From IMG/VR virus record IMGVR_UViG_3300020049_014895, positions 1-64,000 of that record: 64,000 nucleotides of DNA; one strand, written 5' to 3'. Positions 1-9,225 of the stretch are shown here, in pieces (position 1 is the first letter of the stretch; each line of letters starts with the position of its first letter). The notes beneath the pieces are model-generated. The model was not told the DNA's origin. It did not search any database and worked only from the letters and a program-made list of their open reading frames with translations. The translations under genes were made by a program, and so were the position numbers. This DNA is from a virus. Lineage: Duplodnaviria; Caudoviricetes.

Positions 1-85
1 CAATGTAGTTAATGAAGTAGTAGGACAACCTTTTGAAACGGTTACGGATTTAAATGAATTAGAAGATGATGGACTGCCTTTTTAG
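1..85 (+). CDS. C-terminal fragment of a single-stranded DNA-binding protein (partial)
   Basis: Frame from nt 2 reads ...NELEDDGLPF-stop; an acidic DDxLPF tail is typical of SSBs; precedes a replication module. Confidence 0.55.
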   Translation, partial: NVVNEVVGQPFETVTDLNELEDDGLPF

Positions 86-157
86 CATTTAAAAAAGCTA
101 GTAGGTCTAACAAGATAAGGGCTGGGGTGTCACCTGACCGCCTACTAGTTTTAAAAT

Positions 158-191
158 TTACCCGTAATTATTTTGCGGGTAACTTTTTTTT
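158..191 (+). terminator. Intrinsic terminator
   Basis: TTACCCGTAA (158-167) / TTGCGGGTAA (173-182) stem followed by a T run. Confidence 0.7.
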
Positions 192-202
192 ACTTAGATT
201 TG
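172..202 (+). promoter_or_regulatory. Bacteroidota-type sigma70 promoter
   Basis: TTTG (172-175), 19-nt spacer, TAGATTTG (195-202) matching the TTTG-N19-21-TAnnTTTG consensus. Confidence 0.7.
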
Positions 203-212
203 CATTTGTATT

Positions 213-296
213 GGAGTGGAAACCGATATAAAACATAAAAAATATTCAACCCTAAATCGGGAGGCGTTTTCCACACTAGCCAAACGATTTAGGGTT
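213..296 (+). ncRNA. Structured 5' leader (attenuator/antisense-target-like)
   Basis: Perfect 12-bp stem AACCCTAAATCG (248-259)/CGATTTAGGGTT (285-296); its loop holds TTTCCAC (268-274), complementary to GTGGAAA (216-222). Confidence 0.5.
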
Positions 297-316
297 TAAC
301 TTTATATACTATTTAT

Positions 317-595
317 ATGAAACCATTAGAAATTACCTTTATAGGTAAAGGAGAAGTTAAAGGGTTTATCTTTACCCAAATAAAAAAAAGTGAAAAAGCA
401 TATATATACAAAGTAGAAACAGAAGTTTCAAAACATTACGAGGTTTTTAAACACAAAGAAAACACTCAATTTAACTGCATAAGTTATCCAAGTTCAAAAG
501 GTTTTGGAGTATGGGCATGGGCTTTCTTAGACTTTCAAAAAGCATTAGATAGATTTGAATTACTTTCAATAGAAAGCGAGGTTAAAGATGTGTAA
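317..595 (+). CDS. Hypothetical phage protein
   Basis: 92-aa ORF after the leader, overlapping the next gene start. Confidence 0.65.
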   Translation: MKPLEITFIGKGEVKGFIFTQIKKSEKAYIYKVETEVSKHYEVFKHKENTQFNCISYPSSKGFGVWAWAFLDFQKALDRFELLSIESEVKDV

Positions 596-1409
596 AAGAA
601 AAGCATTTAATTTTTTCAAAAGTTATTATGATGTTGCTTTGGAGTTATCAGATAGTGACCGTTTAGCTTTTTATGATGCACTTATAAAACTTCAATTTAC
701 AGGAAAACATACTGAATTATCAGGAATGAGTAAATTTGCTTTTTTATCACAAAAACACTCAATAGACTCTCAACTTTATGGATATTACTCACAAAGCAAA
801 GACCCTGATTTTATTGGGTTTAAAGACGCTAAGAAAGGGGCTGTTGAGGGGGCTTCGGTAGGGGGTGATAAAGGGGCTTCGGTACAAGTACAAGTACAAG
901 AAGAAGTACAAGTACAATGCGTAGACCAAAACACGATTGTTTTTTCTTTTGACCATTTATCAATTACAAAAGGAGATTTTGACAAACTTAGTCAACTTTA
1001 TAAAGAAGAAGATATATTTGATTGCTTTGATAGTATTAAAAACTATAAAAACAACAAATCTTATAAATCTCTTTATTTAACCGCTAATAAATGGCTTAAA
1101 AAAGATTATAATAAAAAAGACACAGAAAGTCAATTACCTGAAGATAAAAGAATCGATTGGAAAATATTTTTAGATTACTTTAATGATTTGTTTAATCCTA
1201 AAATAAAATTATCAGAAGTTCCTGAACAAACAAAAAAACGTTATTTGAATTTGTTGCAATGTGGATTTTCAAAAGACCATTTATTAATTGCTTTTTATAA
1301 CGCTAAAAAAGACCGTGAAAATTTAACCGATGTTACTATTGATACTTTCAGTTATTCATCTATGGTTAATAAGTATCAACAAGACATAAGTAGAATTGGA
1401 ATGTTATGA
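588..1409 (+). CDS. Phage replication initiator / replisome organiser
   Basis: N-terminal FNFFKSYYD..LSDSDRLAFYDAL helix typical of phage initiators, low-complexity repeat linker, position upstream of a helicase. Confidence 0.65.
   Translation: MCKRKAFNFFKSYYDVALELSDSDRLAFYDALIKLQFTGKHTELSGMSKFAFLSQKHSIDSQLYGYYSQSKDPDFIGFKDAKKGAVEGASVGGDKGASVQVQVQEEVQVQCVDQNTIVFSFDHLSITKGDFDKLSQLYKEEDIFDCFDSIKNYKNNKSYKSLYLTANKWLKKDYNKKDTESQLPEDKRIDWKIFLDYFNDLFNPKIKLSEVPEQTKKRYLNLLQCGFSKDHLLIAFYNAKKDRENLTDVTIDTFSYSSMVNKYQQDISRIGML
834..917 (+). repeat. Iteron-like repeats inside the initiator gene (putative ori)
   Basis: GGGGCTTCGGTA at 849-860 and 873-884; GTACAA five times between 882 and 917. Confidence 0.55.
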
Positions 1410-1834
1410 GAGTAAAAGACGCACTTCAAAGATTAGGATTTACTATATCAAATCAGAATAAACCAAACGCAACAGATGCGGAGGCTTTTAATAAGTTACT
1501 TTGGTTCGTTAATGAATCGATAGAAACAAACCCTAATAAAAATATATGTTTTGCAAAGTTGTATATTTACAATCTAATTCACTACATCAAATATTATCAA
1601 TCTTTAGATGTTGCTCAACAAAAGTTACATCAAGTTTTAGACCTAAACATTGATAGTCTTTATGTAGATTTGATGAACGAGCTAAACAATACGGAATTGT
1701 CCGAACTTTGTAAAAAAGGTGTTTTAGATTTTCCTTTACTAAAGCAAGGGATTGAAACTTACGACATAGAAACAACAAGAGCAAATACAAACGCAATGAT
1801 AACATTAGCGTTAAAATCATTTAGCAAACCATGA
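1406..1834 (+). CDS. Hypothetical protein
   Basis: 142-aa ORF with ATGA overlaps on both sides. Confidence 0.7.
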   Translation: MRVKDALQRLGFTISNQNKPNATDAEAFNKLLWFVNESIETNPNKNICFAKLYIYNLIHYIKYYQSLDVAQQKLHQVLDLNIDSLYVDLMNELNNTELSELCKKGVLDFPLLKQGIETYDIETTRANTNAMITLALKSFSKP

Positions 1835-2697
1835 TAGCACCAATAGCAATAAAAACAGATTTAACTTCCTTAGATAAGGATTTTAATAAAATACACGATG
1901 AGCATTTTGTTTCAGTTGATGAGATTTTAAAACCTCAACCCGTTGCAATATCGATAGGACACACAAAATATAAAGAAACTAATTACCCTATTCCTATGGG
2001 TTCGTACGGTGACTTTTCGTGTATTGTAGGAGCATCAAAAGCAAAGAAATCATTTTTAAAATCGCTTTTAGTGGGTGGTTATATTGGTGGGAATACTGTA
2101 ATTAACGCACCCGAAATAAAAGGACATCGATTAACAGATAAGTACGTTATAGACATCGATACAGAGCAATCAGAATATCACTCACAAAGAGTTTTTAAAA
2201 GGGTTGTCGAATTAGTAGGGGTTAACCCTGATTTTTATAAACCGTTTTCTTTGCGTAAATTGTCAGCTAAAGAACGTTTTGAGTTTATCGATTGGTTATT
2301 TACAAAAAGTCAGTATGTAGGTAATATCGGTTTAGTTTCAATCGATGGGGTTGCGGATTTAGTAAACGATGTTAACGATTTAGAAGCGAGTAATAACGTT
2401 GCTCAAAAGTTGTTAGAGTGGAGTGCTAAAGAAAATTGTCACATTATAACCGTGTTGCACCGTAATTTTGGGACTAAGAAACCAACGGGGCATTTAGGTA
2501 GTGCAATATTAAAAAAGGCAGAAACAGTTATATTTGTTGAAAAGGAAAACGAACTTACTTTAGTCAATCCCGAATACACCCGTAACCAACCATTTGAGCC
2601 GTTTGCGTTTGCAGTCGACAGTAATTGGTTACCTTTTGTGGTAGATTATAAAGTTTCAGACAAACCAATTAACAACAAAGAAAAACCTAAATTTTAA
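1831..2697 (+). CDS. AAA-family (RepA/AAA_25-like) replicative helicase/ATPase
   Basis: Walker A-like GASKAKKS, IDTEQS, Walker B-like SIDG, and C-terminal VLH...GHLGS motifs. Confidence 0.75.
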   Translation: MIAPIAIKTDLTSLDKDFNKIHDEHFVSVDEILKPQPVAISIGHTKYKETNYPIPMGSYGDFSCIVGASKAKKSFLKSLLVGGYIGGNTVINAPEIKGHRLTDKYVIDIDTEQSEYHSQRVFKRVVELVGVNPDFYKPFSLRKLSAKERFEFIDWLFTKSQYVGNIGLVSIDGVADLVNDVNDLEASNNVAQKLLEWSAKENCHIITVLHRNFGTKKPTGHLGSAILKKAETVIFVEKENELTLVNPEYTRNQPFEPFAFAVDSNWLPFVVDYKVSDKPINNKEKPKF

Positions 2698-2830
2698 CGT
2701 TTTGCGGCTTTGCGATGGTGGGGTTTCAAGGCACAAATGTTCAACCCACAACTAATGTTTAATAGAAATACAAATGATGAATTTACAACTTCCGCCCCAC
2801 TATTGCAAAACCGATGTTATGCGTAGTGTT
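2695..2830 (-). other. attC-like cassette recombination site (hairpin)
   Basis: TAAC at 2695-2698 and GTTATGC at 2816-2822 enclose a stem: CGG/CCG and TTTGCGATGGTGGGG (2709-2723) / CCCCACTATTGCAAA (2795-2809), with unpaired bases near the base. Confidence 0.65.
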
Positions 2831-3547
2831 TTAGTCCACGCTGATTGCTTTGATGTGTTTCCTTACATTGCTGATAAAAGCGTAAATCTTATTTTATGCG
2901 ATTTGCCCTATGGCACAACTGCAAACAAATGGGATAGCTTACTTGACTTGAATAAACTATGGAAAGAATACGAAAGGATATTAGCACCAAAAGGAAATAT
3001 AGTTTTGTTTGGTGCAGGATTATTCGCTTTTAAACTTGCTTTGAGTAACGAAAAGTTGTTTAGATACGATATGGTTTGGAAGAAAAGTAAATGTGGTAGC
3101 CCTTTGACTGCTAAATATATGCCAATGAAAAAACACGAAATGGTATTAGTATTTGGCAAAAGTGCTTCATACTACAAGCCACAACTTACAGAAGGAACGC
3201 CTTATAAAAGAAAGTGGACACCAAACAAAGTAAATAATATGGAATACGGAATAGCTGGTGTAATAACCGATAATAAAGGAACAAGACACCCAACAACGAT
3301 TTTAGATTTTGCTCAACAATGGCGAAGGCAAGACCAACTACACCCAACGCAAAAACCTGTTGAATTAGCTAAATGGTTAATAGAAGCATTTTCAAAAGAA
3401 GATGATGTAGTAATGGATAATTGTATGGGTAGCAATACAACTGGATTAGCTTGTAAAGAGTTAAATCGTCAATACATAGGAATTGAAAAAGATAAAAATT
3501 ATTACGATGTTTCGGTTAGCAGGGTGCTGTCTTAACATTACGCATAA
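2698..3547 (-). mobile_element. Integron-like gene cassette carrying a DNA methyltransferase
   Basis: End sites GTTATGCGTAGTGTT (2816-2830) and AACATTACGCATAAC (3534-3548) are 14/15 reverse-complementary, as expected of a cassette that circularises into one hairpin. Confidence 0.6.
2819..3535 (+). CDS. N4-C/N6-A DNA methyltransferase, beta class
   Basis: DLPY (motif IV) near N-terminus, HPTQKP, DNCMGSNTTG (motif I) near C-terminus; the track start at 2774 reads through the hairpin, so ATG 2819 is preferred. Confidence 0.9.
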   Translation: MRSVLVHADCFDVFPYIADKSVNLILCDLPYGTTANKWDSLLDLNKLWKEYERILAPKGNIVLFGAGLFAFKLALSNEKLFRYDMVWKKSKCGSPLTAKYMPMKKHEMVLVFGKSASYYKPQLTEGTPYKRKWTPNKVNNMEYGIAGVITDNKGTRHPTTILDFAQQWRRQDQLHPTQKPVELAKWLIEAFSKEDDVVMDNCMGSNTTGLACKELNRQYIGIEKDKNYYDVSVSRVLS

Positions 3548-3599
3548 CTACTATATAGAACAATCGATTTAAAACATCAATAAAACAAGGAGGTTACAA
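3546..3599 (-). other. attI-like site upstream of the recombinase
   Basis: GTT core at 3548-3546 on the minus strand, with further AAC/GTT triplets at 3559, 3573 and 3584, ending just before the recombinase ATG. Confidence 0.4.
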
Positions 3600-4433
3600 A
3601 TGGATTTTACAAGATGGCACAGCAAGTATTGTACAGATTCTCGATTAAAATATCCGAGCAGTAGAACGCAAGAAAATTATCAATGCTCCGTTAGAACATT
3701 TTTAAAATACTTCGAAAAAGAGATTGATCCGCAACACATTTCAACTGACAAAATTAAACAATGGCTATTAACCTTCGCAACAATCAACACACGGAACCAC
3801 AAACTTTGTGCTATCAAATCATTCTATGAAATTACGGTTGGAATGCCTTTAAAATTAGATAAAATTCCTTTCAGTAAAAAGAATAAGCAATTACCAATAG
3901 TGCTATCAGTAGATGAAATACAACGAATGTTTAATGTATGTGAAAATAAAAAGCACAAAGTTATTTTAGCTTTACTATATTCGTGCTCTTTAAGAGTTTC
4001 TGAATTGATAAACTTAAAGTGGAAACATATTGATCGTAGTAGAATGATTATTAACATCATTCAGGCAAAGGGGAACAAGGATAGGCAAGTAGCCTTAAAC
4101 CAGCAATTGATTGATTTGCTTGCAGGCTATTATCGAGAATACAAGCCAACAGAATACATCTTAAACGGACAATTTGGATTGCAATACTCCGACACTTCTG
4201 TTAATCAGGTTATAAAACAACTCGGAGCAAAAGCCGGAATAGAAAACAAGCGTTTGTACACCCACTTAATGCGACACACATCTGCAACCCACATGGTAGA
4301 GGCAGGAACAGACATTAATTTAATTCAGAAGCTATTAGGCCACTCAAACGTAAAAACAACTGCAATTTACACTCATATTTCGCATAACCATATCAGCAAA
4401 ATTCAATCGCCATTAGCACAAATTAACTTATGA
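3600..4433 (+). CDS. Tyrosine recombinase (277 aa; IntI/Xer-like, no arm-binding domain)
   Basis: Intact R-K-H-R-H-Y set: LRVSE, KGNKDR, HLMRH, LLGH, IYTH; LPIVLS and C-terminal SPL motifs. Confidence 0.93.
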   Translation: MDFTRWHSKYCTDSRLKYPSSRTQENYQCSVRTFLKYFEKEIDPQHISTDKIKQWLLTFATINTRNHKLCAIKSFYEITVGMPLKLDKIPFSKKNKQLPIVLSVDEIQRMFNVCENKKHKVILALLYSCSLRVSELINLKWKHIDRSRMIINIIQAKGNKDRQVALNQQLIDLLAGYYREYKPTEYILNGQFGLQYSDTSVNQVIKQLGAKAGIENKRLYTHLMRHTSATHMVEAGTDINLIQKLLGHSNVKTTAIYTHISHNHISKIQSPLAQINL

Positions 4434-6313
4434 TAATTTCAGAGGAAACAATTACAGCCATTAAGAATAAAATGGAGATAGTCGATATCATTCAAGATTT
4501 CGTCACTCTATCCAAGAAAGGTGTTAACCTTATAGGATTGTGCCCGGTGCATAAAGAGAAGACTCCATCTTTTTACGTTTCTCCTTCTAAGCAGATATGT
4601 AAATGCTTTGGCTGCGGATTTGGCGGAGATGGACTCGAATTTTTAATGAAGGGACAAAGAATGTCATATCCTCAAGCACTTACTCATTTAGCCGGGAAGT
4701 ACAACATTCCTGTTGACGAGGAAACTAAAGTCTTTGTAAAACCTGAATGGAAAAACAAGACAATCCTCCCCGAGCCAATCGTAAAATGGTTTGAAGGCAG
4801 AGGAATACGTCAAAAAACGCTCTCTGACATGAAAATCTCCTTCGATAAGGTATACATGCCTGCAGTCGAAAAAGAGCTTCCAGCGATTCAATTTAACTAC
4901 TTCATGGACGGAGAATTGATTAACATCAAGAGCCGTTCGCAGAATAAAGATTTCGCCCTCGTTCCAAAAGCAAAGCTTATCCTCTACAACATCGATTCCA
5001 TTAAAGGGAAAAAAGAGGTTTTTATTTGCGAAGGTGAAATTGATTGCCTTTCCCTCATCGAAGCCGGATACGATAACGAAACATCTGGAGTAGTATCAGT
5101 GCCTAACGGAGCCGGTGTTAAAGGCAATAATCTTTCATACATCGACAACTGCATTCACCTCTTCGAAGGAGTAGAAAAGATTTACATCGGGACCGATAAC
5201 GACATCGCAGGAAGAAGACTCCGCGAAGAACTTGCCGAACGATTTGGTAAGGACCGGTGCACCTATCTCGAATGGAAGGATAAAAAAGATGGCAACGATG
5301 TCCTAAAAGCATACGGAATAGAAGGCATTCATGAGTGTTGCTCGAATCCGATTAATTTTCCCATCACTGGAACCTTCACCGTGTCCGATTTCTCCTACGA
5401 AATTGATGATATGTACGTTAATGGGTTGGATAAAGGAGTAAGCATAGGATTGAGAAATTTTTGGTTGAGATTTGTTCCCGGATACATCACTGTAATCACT
5501 GGGATTTCGAATGATGGGAAATCGGATTTTGTAGACGAAATGACCATGCGACTTGTTACAAAACACCAGTGGAAGGGTGCATACTATTCTCCGGAAAATA
5601 AACCAACTCAATTGCACATCGCTAAGCTTGCTCGGAAATTAACCGGTAAAAATTGGGACGGAGACAACAGAATGACTCGAGAAGAGGTGACGGAAGTAAA
5701 AAACTACCTTGAGAAAAAAGTTTTTTTCATTCAGCCGGAAAAAGATTTTTCCATACAAAGCATTCTTAACACAGTGATGGAATTAAAGAAGGAGTATGGA
5801 ATTAAATGGTTTGTCATTGATGCATGGAACAAACTTGAGCATAAAGGAGGTAGCGATTTAGCATACATCGGGAAAACATTAGATGAATTGGCTATATTTT
5901 GCACCGCAATTCAGGTGCATTGCTTTCTTGTTGCTCATCCACGTAAAATGGATAAGGATAAGAAAACAAAACTTCGCGAGGTTCCATCGCTTTATGACAT
6001 ATCAGGATCCGCAGATTTCTTTAATAAATGCGACAACGGAATAACCGTATACGTAGATTGGTCCACCAAGATTTCTCAAATTCATCGGCAAAAAGTGAAA
6101 TTTTCGCACTGGGGATTCAAAGGAATGAGCGAATATAAATACGATTTAGAATCTTCTCGGTATTATGTAGAAGCCTTTCCTGAGAAGACCAACTGGATAA
6201 CCGGGAAGCCAATTGAAATACCAAAAACAGAAGCAGCGGAACTTTTTGATGTATCCGATATTATCGTAGCAGATAATTCAGAAAGCAATTCAGAAGACGA
6301 CAGCCCTTTTTAA
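4430..6313 (+). CDS. DNA primase-helicase (CHC2 zinc finger + Toprim + SF4 helicase)
   Basis: CPVH...CFGC zinc finger, CEGEID and TDND Toprim motifs, TGISNDGKS Walker A, VIDAWN Walker B, acidic DDSPF tail. Confidence 0.9.
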   Translation: MIISEETITAIKNKMEIVDIIQDFVTLSKKGVNLIGLCPVHKEKTPSFYVSPSKQICKCFGCGFGGDGLEFLMKGQRMSYPQALTHLAGKYNIPVDEETKVFVKPEWKNKTILPEPIVKWFEGRGIRQKTLSDMKISFDKVYMPAVEKELPAIQFNYFMDGELINIKSRSQNKDFALVPKAKLILYNIDSIKGKKEVFICEGEIDCLSLIEAGYDNETSGVVSVPNGAGVKGNNLSYIDNCIHLFEGVEKIYIGTDNDIAGRRLREELAERFGKDRCTYLEWKDKKDGNDVLKAYGIEGIHECCSNPINFPITGTFTVSDFSYEIDDMYVNGLDKGVSIGLRNFWLRFVPGYITVITGISNDGKSDFVDEMTMRLVTKHQWKGAYYSPENKPTQLHIAKLARKLTGKNWDGDNRMTREEVTEVKNYLEKKVFFIQPEKDFSIQSILNTVMELKKEYGIKWFVIDAWNKLEHKGGSDLAYIGKTLDELAIFCTAIQVHCFLVAHPRKMDKDKKTKLREVPSLYDISGSADFFNKCDNGITVYVDWSTKISQIHRQKVKFSHWGFKGMSEYKYDLESSRYYVEAFPEKTNWITGKPIEIPKTEAAELFDVSDIIVADNSESNSEDDSPF

Positions 6314-6324
6314 ATAATTGTTTT

Positions 6325-6356
6325 TTTGTGCAATTCAAAATCTTTTCTTACCTTTA
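6325..6356 (+). promoter_or_regulatory. Bacteroidota-type promoter
   Basis: TTTG (6325-6328), 20-nt spacer, TACCTTTA (6349-6356). Confidence 0.55.
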
Positions 6357-6375
6357 CACCGAAATTAAAAATCAT

Positions 6376-6464
6376 TTGGTAGAATGATTAACGTAAATAG
6401 CCAATCGGAAGAAATGGCGAACCACGAAGAAAGCCCTACCAACTACCATTGGATAGGGCTTCTT
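6376..6464 (+). ncRNA. Structured 5' leader (attenuator/antisense-target-like)
   Basis: Stem AAGCCCTA (6431-6438)/TAGGGCTT (6454-6461); CTACCA in the loop and CTACCAA in the stem are complementary to TTGGTAG (6376-6382). Confidence 0.5.
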
Positions 6465-6481
6465 TGTTAAATTAAATAACT

Positions 6482-6823
6482 ATGAAAAGAGAAATTAAAT
6501 TTAGAGCATGGCACATTGGAGCAGAGCAGATGATTACATAGGAAAATTTAAAAGGGTTAAGATACTCAATAGAAAACAACAATGTTGTTGTACAGCAATA
6601 CATAGGGCTAAAAGACAAGAACGGTAAAGAGATTTATGAGGGAGATGTTATTGTTTGGGACGATGGAAGTAAATATAAAGTTGAATGGCACGAAGATATA
6701 GCCGTTTTCTTTTTAGCTTCTACCCATAACGGAACTGATGATTGCGGATTTGACCAAGTAACATCACCAGAATTTGAAATTATCGGCAACATCTACGAAC
6801 ACCCAAACTTACTAACCAACTAA
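6482..6823 (+). pseudogene. YopX-family protein with an in-frame TAG
   Basis: MKREIKFRAW...MIT*ENL...QYIGLKDKNGKEIYEGD...EIIGNIYEHPNLL; TAG at 6539-6541; missed by the ORF track. Confidence 0.85.
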
Positions 6824-6834
6824 CATAAACAGAA

Positions 6835-7095
6835 ATGGAAAACGGAAAAATACAATACAGCACTATTTTTAGATTAATACTAAGATTAATTTGCTCACCA
6901 TTAATGATAGGAATATTATTGATTACTTATAATTTATGGGCTATTAGAATATGTATAAAGTATGTGCAATATGGAGGCGAAATATCGGTATATAAAAAGA
7001 ATGACAATAAAACAATTCAGGATATTTATAGTTTACTAAAAAACAACCCCGAACTCCTCACCCAATTAGAAACATCAAAAATCGACAAGGTATGA
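6835..7095 (+). CDS. Hypothetical membrane protein
   Basis: Hydrophobic N-terminal segment. Confidence 0.6.
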   Translation: MENGKIQYSTIFRLILRLICSPLMIGILLITYNLWAIRICIKYVQYGGEISVYKKNDNKTIQDIYSLLKNNPELLTQLETSKIDKV

Positions 7096-7289
7096 AGACG
7101 ATAACATATACGTGTAATTTATGCATGGAAAAGAAAGAGCAAAAGGATTTAAAATGCTTTTATTTTAAGTGTGATATTATCCCGCAACAATATGTGATTT
7201 ATAACGATTTAACACGTTCGGATAAGCACGTTTGTACATCATGCATTAAAGTATTTGAAAAGCACTTATTAATCAATACTAACCCCTAA
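7092..7289 (+). CDS. Small zinc-finger protein
   Basis: CNLC and CTSC pairs; overlaps upstream stop. Confidence 0.6.
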   Translation: MKTITYTCNLCMEKKEQKDLKCFYFKCDIIPQQYVIYNDLTRSDKHVCTSCIKVFEKHLLINTNP

Positions 7290-7295
7290 CTAACT

Positions 7296-7778
7296 ATGGC
7301 ATTAACAGAAAAGAAATTAACGGCAGAAGAAATAAGAAATCTTATTCAATCTGAGTACGATAAAAACAAAGTCGATACAAATTATAATTTTATAAATCGC
7401 TTTGCTCGTGCTGTTTATGAAGGCTTATCTCTCTCTAAGGAAGGTAAAGAAGAAGCGGAGGTGGAACGAATTATTTGTGCATCAAACTATTATAACGATG
7501 GAGTATTGAGGGATTTTAGACCAAAAAATACTCAAGAAGGATTTGTTATTTGTGGGCATAGACACCACAATTGCATTAGTACGTTCGCTCAAATGTATGG
7601 ATTCCCATATTCAAAAGAAGCGATGGAGATTCATAAAACCGAGATACAAGGATTCTTAACAAATACCAATCGTTTTGTTGGTAGAAAAGAGGCACTTGAA
7701 ATTGCAAGAAAAGCAAAGCAACTAATAACTGGTGATGGGAATGATAATTTAGGGTTATTCTCGGAAGATTTGTATTAA
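7296..7778 (+). CDS. Conserved phage hypothetical protein
   Basis: C-terminal GHRHHNC...QGFLTNTNRFVGRKEA...LFSEDLY domain recognisable from phage accessory genes. Confidence 0.7.
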   Translation: MALTEKKLTAEEIRNLIQSEYDKNKVDTNYNFINRFARAVYEGLSLSKEGKEEAEVERIICASNYYNDGVLRDFRPKNTQEGFVICGHRHHNCISTFAQMYGFPYSKEAMEIHKTEIQGFLTNTNRFVGRKEALEIARKAKQLITGDGNDNLGLFSEDLY

Positions 7779-7799
7779 CTAAAACAGAAAAGTAAAACA

Positions 7800-8645
7800 A
7801 TGGAAACAACACTAACAAAGAAAGAAAACTTCAAGATTATTGAAAAATCACTATTTACAACAAAGCATCATACTGTTGTTGTAGAAGATGTTGCGAGCAA
7901 TCAAAGATGGTACATTGGGTTTGAATTTAACAATAGTGGGTTAGTTCGTGATTCATTCAGAGAAAAAATAAACCCCGAATTGTTCAGCAAACAAAAACCG
8001 GAATATAGAAATGAATTATTTGCATTTGCATTTGATAATCTCCCCACCCCTGCCGTGTCTTTAGATGGGGTGAGAGAGCATGAATGTAAGTATTGTGGAG
8101 CAACTACAACACAGCCTGATAGTGAGTGTTATAAAGCTCCCTTATCAACTGAAAAGTGTGAGGGTTGTAAAGGTAATGGATGGAATGGAATTGCAGACCA
8201 AAGCTCTACTTGTACTATTTGCAACGGGACAGGAAACAACACCTTATCAACTGAAAAGAAGGTGGTGGAAGATTGGGATGAGGTAGAAAAGGAATATAAA
8301 GAATATTTTAAGAAAACTGTCGATTTATTCTTTAATGACGCATCAGTAGACACTCAACCTTTAACATTTAAAAAATGGCTAAAACAACACTACACCCTCC
8401 CTATTTCGGATAACAAAGAGGGGAAGGAGTTGAGTCAGATTACGGATGAGGATGCGATTGAGGTGTTAAAATTATTAGGCATAATGCCCAAAGCGGATTG
8501 GAATAAAGATTATTGCAGAAAATGGGTATATGGATTTTTTACAGATACGTTTTCAACTAAATACGATGCACTTGGTGGGTTAAGTGTAATCAAAGCCTAC
8601 CAATACCTCCAATCCCGTGGCTATAAATTACCAACGTATTACTAA
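7800..8645 (+). CDS. Modular hypothetical protein with zinc-binding modules
   Basis: CKYCG and a DnaJ-like CEGCKGNG/CTICNGTG module bounded by a 17-bp direct repeat. Confidence 0.65.
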   Translation: METTLTKKENFKIIEKSLFTTKHHTVVVEDVASNQRWYIGFEFNNSGLVRDSFREKINPELFSKQKPEYRNELFAFAFDNLPTPAVSLDGVREHECKYCGATTTQPDSECYKAPLSTEKCEGCKGNGWNGIADQSSTCTICNGTGNNTLSTEKKVVEDWDEVEKEYKEYFKKTVDLFFNDASVDTQPLTFKKWLKQHYTLPISDNKEGKELSQITDEDAIEVLKLLGIMPKADWNKDYCRKWVYGFFTDTFSTKYDALGGLSVIKAYQYLQSRGYKLPTYY

Positions 8646-8666
8646 CTTAAAAAAAAATAAACAAAA

Positions 8667-8852
8667 ATGGCAAGCTACACACCTGATTACAAATACCAAG
8701 AAGCTAAAAAGGTAATTGAAGAAATGAAAGGTAAAAAAGGAGAATTAGTGAGATACTATGTTTCTCAAAATAAAAAATGGTACGATTGCCTTTTAGAAAG
8801 AAATGAAGAAATGAGAAATGTTTTTAAAGGGATAATTAGATTTTCAAGATAA
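8667..8852 (+). CDS. Hypothetical protein
   Basis: 61-aa ORF after an A-rich leader. Confidence 0.55.
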   Translation: MASYTPDYKYQEAKKVIEEMKGKKGELVRYYVSQNKKWYDCLLERNEEMRNVFKGIIRFSR

Positions 8853-8877
8853 CCAATGCTTAATTAAATTATAGGAG

Positions 8878-9225
8878 ATGAAAGTGATAATTGCCGGTGG
8901 CAGAACATTTAATGATTTCGATTTGCTTTGTGAAAATTGCGATATAATATTAAGCAAATACACTAATGTTGAGATAGTAAGTGGAACAGCTAATGGAGCG
9001 GATAAGCTTGGCGAAAAATACGCAAAAGAAAGAAACTATTCGATAAAACAATTCCCTGCAAATTGGGGCAAGTTTGGCAAAAGTGCTGGATATAAAAGGA
9101 ATGAAGATATGGCTAAATATGCAGATTTTTTAATTGCCTTTTGGGATAATAAAAGTAAAGGGACTAAGCACATGATAGATTTAGCTAAAAAGTATAACGT
9201 AAAGTCAATCATATTTTTTTATTAA
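8878..9225 (+). CDS. SLOG-family (YspA/DUF2493-like) protein
   Basis: IIAGGRTF, VSGTANGAD, AGYKRN, AFWDNKSKGT motifs. Confidence 0.85.
   Translation: MKVIIAGGRTFNDFDLLCENCDIILSKYTNVEIVSGTANGADKLGEKYAKERNYSIKQFPANWGKFGKSAGYKRNEDMAKYADFLIAFWDNKSKGTKHMIDLAKKYNVKSIIFFY

Follow-up and report, generated by a model that had tools for sequence, protein, structure and literature searches.

A putative integron-like cassette platform with an Xer-like recombinase in a phage of probable Bacteroidota hosts

A methyltransferase cassette beside a tyrosine recombinase gene

The first 64,000 bases of a single 74,481-bp virus record (IMG/VR IMGVR_UViG_3300020049_014895; these bases, 1–64000, are called the window throughout) carry near their left end a gene for an N6/N4 DNA methyltransferase followed by a gene for a 277-amino-acid Xer-like tyrosine recombinase, the two being set between backbone genes for an AAA_25 / RecA-like ATPase and a primase-helicase (Table 1). 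The gene strand is + throughout 300–9000. From comparisons of the sequence with its relatives, we put at roughly 85% the probability that positions 2699–4433 are the recombinase-proximal end of an integron-like gene-capture platform into which cassettes would be placed site-specifically; the host group of the phage is probably Bacteroidota. A sequence-only reading of this DNA had proposed a system of this kind, made up of a recombinase, an attI-like site and one captured methyltransferase cassette, and its central claims are supported by the comparative data described below.

The cassette is bordered on both sides by TAAC (unit borders are marked by an arrow). At the distal end the TAA stop codon of the ATPase gene (2695–2697) together with C2698 makes up the TAAC junction, and at the proximal end the cassette abuts TAAC↓TACTATATAG, this TAAC ending 51 nt before the recombinase ATG. 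The site at the distal junction, 770 bp from the recombinase gene, consists in order of the neighbour's end, TAAC, a 6-nt unpaired spacer, one arm of the L stem, a loop, the other arm of the L stem and an inner GTTA box. Depending on whether translation starts at ATG 2774 or ATG 2819, the methyltransferase has 253 or 238 amino acids.

Table 1. Features of the locus and further sites of the same genome (positions count from the first base of the record)
Feature	Position	Strand	Evidence or remark
Backbone gene, AAA_25 / RecA-like ATPase	1831..2697	+	Pfam PF13481
attC-like site	2683..2831	+	covariance model R1, 112.9 bits, E 1.7e-18; covariation-supported structure
Distal cassette junction, TAAC G-border (TAAC↓G)	2695..2698	+	metagenome contigs (4 runs) depart from the window here
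Whole methyltransferase cassette, 850 bp	2699..3548	+	alone with unlike flanks in runs X1-X4; other cassette in L088
Hairpin 5' arm (L stem)	2705..2724	+	centroid fold; aligned columns 27-43, compensatory changes
Hairpin loop, A-rich	2725..2793	+	contains ATG 2774, methyltransferase frame
Cargo gene, N6/N4 DNA methyltransferase	2774..3535	+	PF01555, E 9e-35
Hairpin 3' arm (L stem)	2794..2813	+	centroid fold; reads ..PHYCKT.. if translated from ATG 2774
R box inner half, GTTATGCGTAGTGTT	2816..2830	+	14/15 complementary to 3534-3548; overlaps alternative start ATG 2819
Cassette end, R box outer half, AACATTACGCATAAC	3534..3548	+	overlaps stop codon; pairs with 2816-2830 in circle-junction fold
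Proximal junction and attI-like site, TAAC↓TACTATATAGAA	3545..3560	+	motif kept before recombinase start in relatives
Xer-like tyrosine recombinase, 277 aa	3600..4433	+	PF00589, E 2e-39, plus N-terminal SAM-like domain
Backbone gene, primase-helicase	4430..6313	+	Pfam; directly 3' of recombinase; with recombinase 92% conserved in L088
Other covariance-model site	72129-72284	+	
Other covariance-model site	72667-72815	+	
Other covariance-model site	73500-73645	+	
Other covariance-model site	74349-74481	+	cut by contig end

The two ends of the cassette are complementary to each other

Two 15-mers flanking the methyltransferase gene had been singled out as nearly complementary, and their pairing is borne out at 14 of 15 positions, the sole mismatch being a G.T wobble on the + strand. 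The inner box is complementary at only 7 of 14 positions to the end that physically adjoins the site (2685–2698). The hairpin described at the distal junction is likewise found by folding, with 19 pairs between its two arms and with TAAC and GTTA (2816–2819) at its base. When 3548 is joined to 2699, as in the predicted circular form of the cassette, one long hairpin of −25.4 kcal/mol results (z = −4.5), as had been anticipated, whereas the form present in the array reaches −15.2 kcal/mol and by itself is no more stable than shuffled sequence (DNA z = +0.29, RNA z = −1.94); the minus strand of the circle junction folds at −20.8 kcal/mol. A scan of 2000–5000 against Rfam matched no family. By our estimate about two inverted repeats of 14/15 are expected by chance per 3 kb, and several 14/16 pairs are present here. 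Taken alone, the features of the locus are thus weak, and the case rests on comparison with relatives and not on folding energy.

The site belongs to a family with a covarying stem

Cassettes of related arrays, which hold up to about 12 units, share one anatomy. TAAC↓G and a spacer of 6 nt lead into an imperfect hairpin, which is followed by the inner box, GTTAnnnGC(A/T)GT, and in most cases by a single open reading frame (ORF); the unit closes with the reverse complement of its own inner box. All borders read xxTAAC↓G(G/T)TT. Averaged over 52 unique cassettes, the inner GTTA 14-mer matches its own unit's end at 12.5 of 14 positions, as opposed to 7.5 of 14 for the end that lies physically next to it. 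In 581 kb of related loci, 100 instances of the full pattern (TAAC↓G and a hairpin, with an inner GTTA 14-mer that is complementary to the end of its unit) are on the strand of the recombinase; the opposite strand has 11, and shuffles give 7.8.

An alignment of 24 sites shows that the hairpin covaries, with compensatory changes at 12 of the 13 pairs of the L stem. Paired cells amount to 89.7%; shuffles reach 69%, and sliding the partner lowers the share to about 41%. The covariation score is 0.485 against 0.15, a value of 0.485 being reached by none of 500 shuffles. The consensus has attC-type architecture: TAAC(G)/(T)GTTA is invariant, the L stem covaries and is broken by unpaired columns, and the spacer is asymmetric, with 6 nt on one side and 2 nt opposite. 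Read on the + strand, the mismatch that recurs at box position 11 is a G.T wobble; 23 of the 24 sites have G.T at one stem position, and the + strand folds more stably than the − strand in 49 of the 52 cassettes.

Sites are linked to the recombinase gene and share its orientation

A covariance model built from the 24 sites has exactly five hits in the 74.5-kb genome, all on the + strand and in two clusters, the window site being the best of them. Across the related loci and 18 Bacteroidota-type genome contigs, in which recombinase homologs are 42–79% identical, 96 of 103 hits lie upstream of the recombinase gene and seven downstream. All 108 hits, five of which are in loci without a recombinase, are on one strand, which is that of the recombinase where one is present. 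The upstream linkage extends to homologs of 42–44% identity in Bacteroidota genome contigs. The seven downstream hits lie 3–5 kb from the recombinase in loci L005, L027 and L033, which indicates that some genomes keep a second array away from it, as this genome does.

That second array, at 72147–74481 and so outside the window (locus L058, 8147–10481), contradicts the description of the system as a minimal one with a single cassette. It begins directly after the stop TAA-C of a backbone gene and comprises three complete cassettes followed by a fourth site that the contig end cuts; the cargo is a 146-amino-acid DUF7336 protein and two N6/N4 methyltransferases of 214 and 260 amino acids. By position this cluster would be a CALIN (two or more attC sites lacking an integrase), which the window locus is not, given the recombinase nearby. 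The matching end of the genome's fifth unit (start 74365) was not found; the unit runs off the contig. Were the genome circular, the second array would lie about 2.8 kb upstream of the window cassette; closure of the contig into a circle could not be demonstrated. Before the first gene of the replication module, window positions 84–316 hold two strong inverted repeats (CTAGTAGG...CCTACTAG and CCCTAAATCG...CGATTTAGGG) and, at about 160–195, a terminator-like hairpin with a T run; TAAC↓TTTATATAC... at 297–316 faintly resembles the attI-like motif described next.

The junction is conserved in relatives and the cargo is exchanged

Recombinase homologs of 52–80% identity were compared in 33 IMG/VR loci with quite different gene contexts. 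A TAAC↓nnnTATAT(G/A)TA-like motif (TAAC↓TAYTATAT(G/A)TA among the IMG/VR loci) stands about 50–90 nt before the start in most loci that hold the start of the gene, and it is kept in homologs down to 42% identity, in keeping with the earlier proposal of an attI-like site next to the recombinase. In ten loci whose recombinase match starts near residue 20 the strict form of the motif was not found. Sequence to the left of TAAC varies even between phages that are identical to its right: L006, L007, L009 and L010 share everything right of TAAC↓TATTATATG and are unlike one another to the left. The homology of L001–L003, L029 and L088 to the window starts at 3544–3545. The last of these is the closest relative, with a recombinase 92% identical and the same primase-helicase; its homology begins at 3544, and upstream of that point another cassette takes the place of the window's. 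The sequence-only reading had looked to other cargo at this very junction, and such cargo is found in L088 and in the L006, L007, L009 and L010 group.

Cassettes are also shuffled between phages that are nearly identical to one another. L008, L011 and L012 are 99–100% identical from the junction onward, and their arrays measure 1.7, 5.0 and 2.65 kb up to a conserved upstream gene. L011 and L012, whose recombinases are about 69% identical to that of the window and about 99% identical to each other across that gene, are 99–100% identical outside the array, and inside it hold 100%-identical units of 290–340 bp in permuted order. On the distal side, locus L034 carries the closest relative of the AAA_25 gene, 97% identical, and its homology to the window ends at 2701; this break is only weak evidence, since it coincides with the gene end and the record has one site only and no recombinase.

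In L088 (257–1481) the hairpin arms, at 266 and 1411, stand 1.1 kb apart, a 97-amino-acid ORF and a 246-amino-acid methyltransferase gene both lie inside the loop, and the cassette ends no more than about 60 nt beyond the inner GTTA box; this layout indicates that cargo can sit in the loop instead of 3' of the hairpin. Among the cultured phages of INPHARED we found no close DNA relatives and no recombinase homolog above 37% identity. A contig of a cultured bacterial isolate, Flavobacterium urumqiense CGMCC 1.9230 (88.6–105.4 kb; locus L081), encodes a 44%-identical recombinase preceded by TAAC↓TACTATATATA and one site upstream. This gene lies beside an S49 head-protease-like gene in a prophage-like context, possibly a prophage, and the isolate could serve as a laboratory model.

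The window cassette occurs elsewhere with different flanks

Twenty public sequencing runs contain between about a fifth and a third of the words of 1800–4700. We compared with this stretch the contigs of four of them (X1–X4), which stem from four studies of wastewater and freshwater, and treated parts of the stretch with no contig cover as uninformative. Apart from a few short pieces of lower identity in 4011–4539, the contigs cover only 2695–3549, mostly at 99% identity or above, and beyond both borders they are unlike the window, with flanks that start at 2695 and 3549 and differ between runs. The methyltransferase cassette is therefore mobile as a unit, and its borders are the TAAC↓ positions (2698 and 3548) and its length the approximately 850 bp that the sequence-only reading had given, in agreement with the unit borders of relatives. 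Flanks and contigs are identical in X2 and X3, which may be one data set; their upstream flank ends ...GATTAGCGCA↓TAAC, a typical cassette end. None of the X1–X4 contigs holds an inverted form of the cassette. In X1, contigs join 2720/2723 to 2794/2798, retaining the hairpin arms with another loop or none, which suggests that loops may be exchanged or lost between copies of the site.

Methyltransferase genes are frequent cargo

Three of the four complete cassettes of this genome encode N6/N4 DNA methyltransferases and the fourth a DUF7336 protein, and in L089 a C5 methylase cassette adjoins the recombinase; the cargo of relatives is mostly small and without a Pfam family. The methyltransferase of the window cassette is an orphan enzyme, which presumably protects phage DNA from host restriction. 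The site precedes the cargo gene and overlaps its 5' end, and all cargo genes are read in the direction of the recombinase. In many cases, among them the window cassette, L006 and the 73.5-kb cassette of this genome, the loop of the hairpin contains the start codon. In two phages the loop is shared and, with the 3' arm, encodes a common N-terminal peptide, M..(N)..PHYCKTDV (window 2774–2830; L006, 1019–1075), in frame with unrelated cargo.

The recombinase is Xer-like

The catalytic residues R132, K157, H222, R225, H248 and Y257 are all present and are invariant in 12 homologs. With the NCBI models the recombinase stays below the cut-offs of XerA, IntI, XerC and XerD and is equidistant from them in score (XerA 188, cut-off 220; TIGR02249 integron integrase 165.6, cut-off 265; XerD 165, cut-off 330; XerC 165, cut-off 335), and PRK15417 gives 93.7 bits against a cut-off of 435. 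There are weak matches to tyrosine-type invertase models, and the C-terminal ..SPL.. tail aligns to VchIntIA. Hundreds of metagenomic homologs have 276–280 amino acids and are labelled XerD. We found no dif-like palindrome, and the sites linked to the gene are long hairpins. In its apparent mode of working the locus is like an integron, yet its recombinase does not belong to the IntI family.

A proposed model of cassette exchange

In a circular cassette the site would form one long imperfect hairpin, with an R box assembled from both ends (...ATTACGCATAAC / GTTATGCGTAGT...), an asymmetric unpaired spacer, and the L stem with its loop. Most likely the 277-amino-acid recombinase recombines this hairpin site, folded from the better-folding + strand, with a double-stranded attI-like site about 51 nt upstream of its own gene. 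Exchange would take place at or next to TAAC↓, and cassettes would in this way be inserted, excised and reordered. The identity of the catalyst, the folded single-stranded substrate, the exact position of cleavage and the circular intermediate are the parts of this scheme that we infer.

Comparison with known systems

Several traits are those of integrons, in particular sedentary chromosomal ones: a platform formed by a tyrosine recombinase gene and a fixed insertion site upstream of its 5' end; head-to-tail cassettes with one imperfect hairpin each, composed of AAC/GTT R boxes, an unpaired spacer, an L stem and a variable loop; cassettes whose first bases can pair with the far R box of their own site; one strand that folds better than the other; and cassettes permuted between close relatives. 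Unlike integrons, the system described here has a recombinase without the IntI insertion that scores as generic Xer-like. Integron genes point away from attI and have attC at their 3' end, whereas here the cargo genes are on the opposite strand and the site comes before the gene. The R box of 12–16 bp, with its conserved GC and G.T wobble, the attI-like motif TAAC↓nnnTATATGTA, and the carriers, phages and their Bacteroidota hosts, differ as well. Of the classical integron geometry first proposed, the sites, borders and platform stand, while the recombinase, lacking the insertion and falling below the TIGR02249 cut-off, does not fit; the cassette structure proposed with it likewise holds, but compared with classical cassettes the cargo runs in antisense, and its start codon is in the hairpin loop.

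Gene modules bounded by short sites are also known from Acinetobacter plasmids, where the dif/pdif sites are double-stranded, 28 bp long and acted on by the host XerC/XerD pair. The present recombinase, of about 277 amino acids with core-binding and catalytic domains, is likewise Xer-like, and discrete modules lie between short recombination sites. In contrast to dif/pdif, however, the sites are hairpins of about 60–190 nt from end-specific box to inner box (the hairpin proper taking about 40–175 nt), and a single recombinase is encoded by the element itself. In T4-type phages, the mobile regulatory PeSL cassettes are thought to be exchanged through promoter-and-stem-loop homology, without a dedicated site-specific recombinase. 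Small phage accessory genes flanked by stem-loops and shuffled between related phages are common to both systems; the fixed TAAC↓ borders, own-end complementarity and linked recombinase set the present one apart.

IntegronFinder surveys have turned up hardly any integrons in Bacteroidetes (PMC9024848) and, in phages, nothing but orphan attC clusters or integrons borrowed from bacteria (PMC9892861). CALINs were described in virulent phages by Qi et al. (2023; PMC9892861), who include Polaribacter phage P12002L with its methyltransferase cassettes and treated its site as an orphan integron attC without recombinase or attI. The P12002L_attC1 oligonucleotide is exactly the site at L057 5401, of the same type as here and upstream of a methyltransferase gene, and methyltransferase cargo is frequent in both. 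It was the one of six sites that IntI1 did not recombine (PMC9892861), a failure that fits a dedicated enzyme. In P12002L itself we found no homolog of the recombinase, whereas here a dedicated Xer-like recombinase and a conserved insertion site accompany the sites. A full-text literature search found no description of the complete system.

Weighing the explanations

A number of observations weigh against an integron-like platform. The recombinase is without the IntI insertion (the I2 helix region, through which IntI contacts the extrahelical bases of folded attC); its alignment to VchIntIA (2a3v) splits, and query residues 172–197 (about 24 amino acids) stand opposite IntI4 residues 175–243 (about 67). 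The insertion is incompletely conserved in an integron-like subgroup and is yet essential for integron function (Smyshlyaev et al., PMC8138268). With the insertion absent, single-strand recognition would need another mode. The G.T wobbles are asymmetric between the strands and fall on the mRNA-sense strand, and they could therefore reflect RNA rather than DNA structure. Arrays exist kilobases from a recombinase or in phages without one (72–74.5 kb of this genome, L005, L027, L033 and P12002L). The empty site that the sequence-only reading had hoped for in related genomes, predicted as ...AAATTTTAAC↓TACTATATAGAAC..., did not appear in IMG/VR with either of two patterns, one having five matches, all due to chance and with no recombinase nearby, and the other none. 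The Logan contigs of the metagenomic runs are short and cannot reveal intermediates, and catalysis by the recombinase and the circular form are reached by inference.

Alternatively, the hairpins might be PeSL-like regulatory or translation-start elements, shuffled by short-homology or illegitimate recombination, with the recombinase a mere neighbour concerned with the ordinary integration or dimer resolution of the phage. A start codon and an A-rich leader do lie in the loop, the mRNA strand is the one that folds better, arrays without a recombinase exist, and a homolog lies in the apparent prophage of F. urumqiense. We nevertheless consider this improbable, as the borders fall at a fixed core of 4–5 nt with unique flanks and not within long repeated arms, the unit ends are complementary to each other and not to their neighbours (which homology-driven exchange leaves unexplained), 96 of 103 sites stand immediately 5' of the recombinase gene in its own orientation, and the junction motif is kept about 50 nt before the start across 42–92% identity. 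Single-strand transposon-like elements of the IS200/IS605 kind, which insert 3' of a fixed tetranucleotide, have subterminal hairpins and would here be moved by another enzyme of host or phage, could account for units that are inserted after TAAC, end in TAAC and have a hairpin just inside the left end, as well as for orphan arrays. No HUH transposase was seen beside the arrays examined, however, and a tyrosine recombinase is consistently linked; moreover, the units follow one another head to tail at a single platform and are not scattered, with five sites in 74.5 kb forming two clusters, and such an origin appears highly improbable.

Acquisition from bacteria of a classical integron with IntI, attI and attC is suggested by the AAC/GTT cores, the R- and L-box geometry, the 165.6 bits with TIGR02249, the ..SPL.. 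tail and the HattCI attC call for one such site (PMC9892861). That score equals those for XerC and XerD and is below the cut-off of 265; with the IntI insertion absent, the polarity of the cargo reversed and P12002L_attC1 not recombined by IntI1, the chance of this explanation is very slight. The cassette might instead be an invertible segment whose 15-bp inverted repeats allow a phase-variable methyltransferase to be switched by the neighbouring recombinase. Inverted repeats do flank the coding sequence from start to stop, next to a tyrosine recombinase with weak invertase-model matches, but all 108 sites and all cassettes have one orientation, no contig shows an inverted form, and the same repeat logic recurs in dozens of unrelated cargos in chained arrays, which leaves this proposal next to no probability.

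Implications

Integrons are regarded as bacterial, and mostly proteobacterial, systems that are defined by IntI and its insertion. We think it rather probable, with less assurance than we attach to the platform itself, that the integron-like locus described here represents a separate and widespread integron lineage of Bacteroidota phages and their hosts, either ancestral or independent, in which a short Xer-like enzyme would recombine a folded single strand with a double-stranded site without the IntI insertion and which may serve the swapping of anti-restriction and counter-defence genes. If this is true, capture of cassettes through hairpin sites does not need the IntI insertion, which bears on the evolution of integron integrases from Xer-like ancestors, and current integron finders miss a whole class. 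The locus would offer a compact, testable model, built of a single recombinase, an 850-bp cassette and an insertion motif of 12 nt, of what would be a route for the exchange of methyltransferases and small accessory genes among environmental phages.

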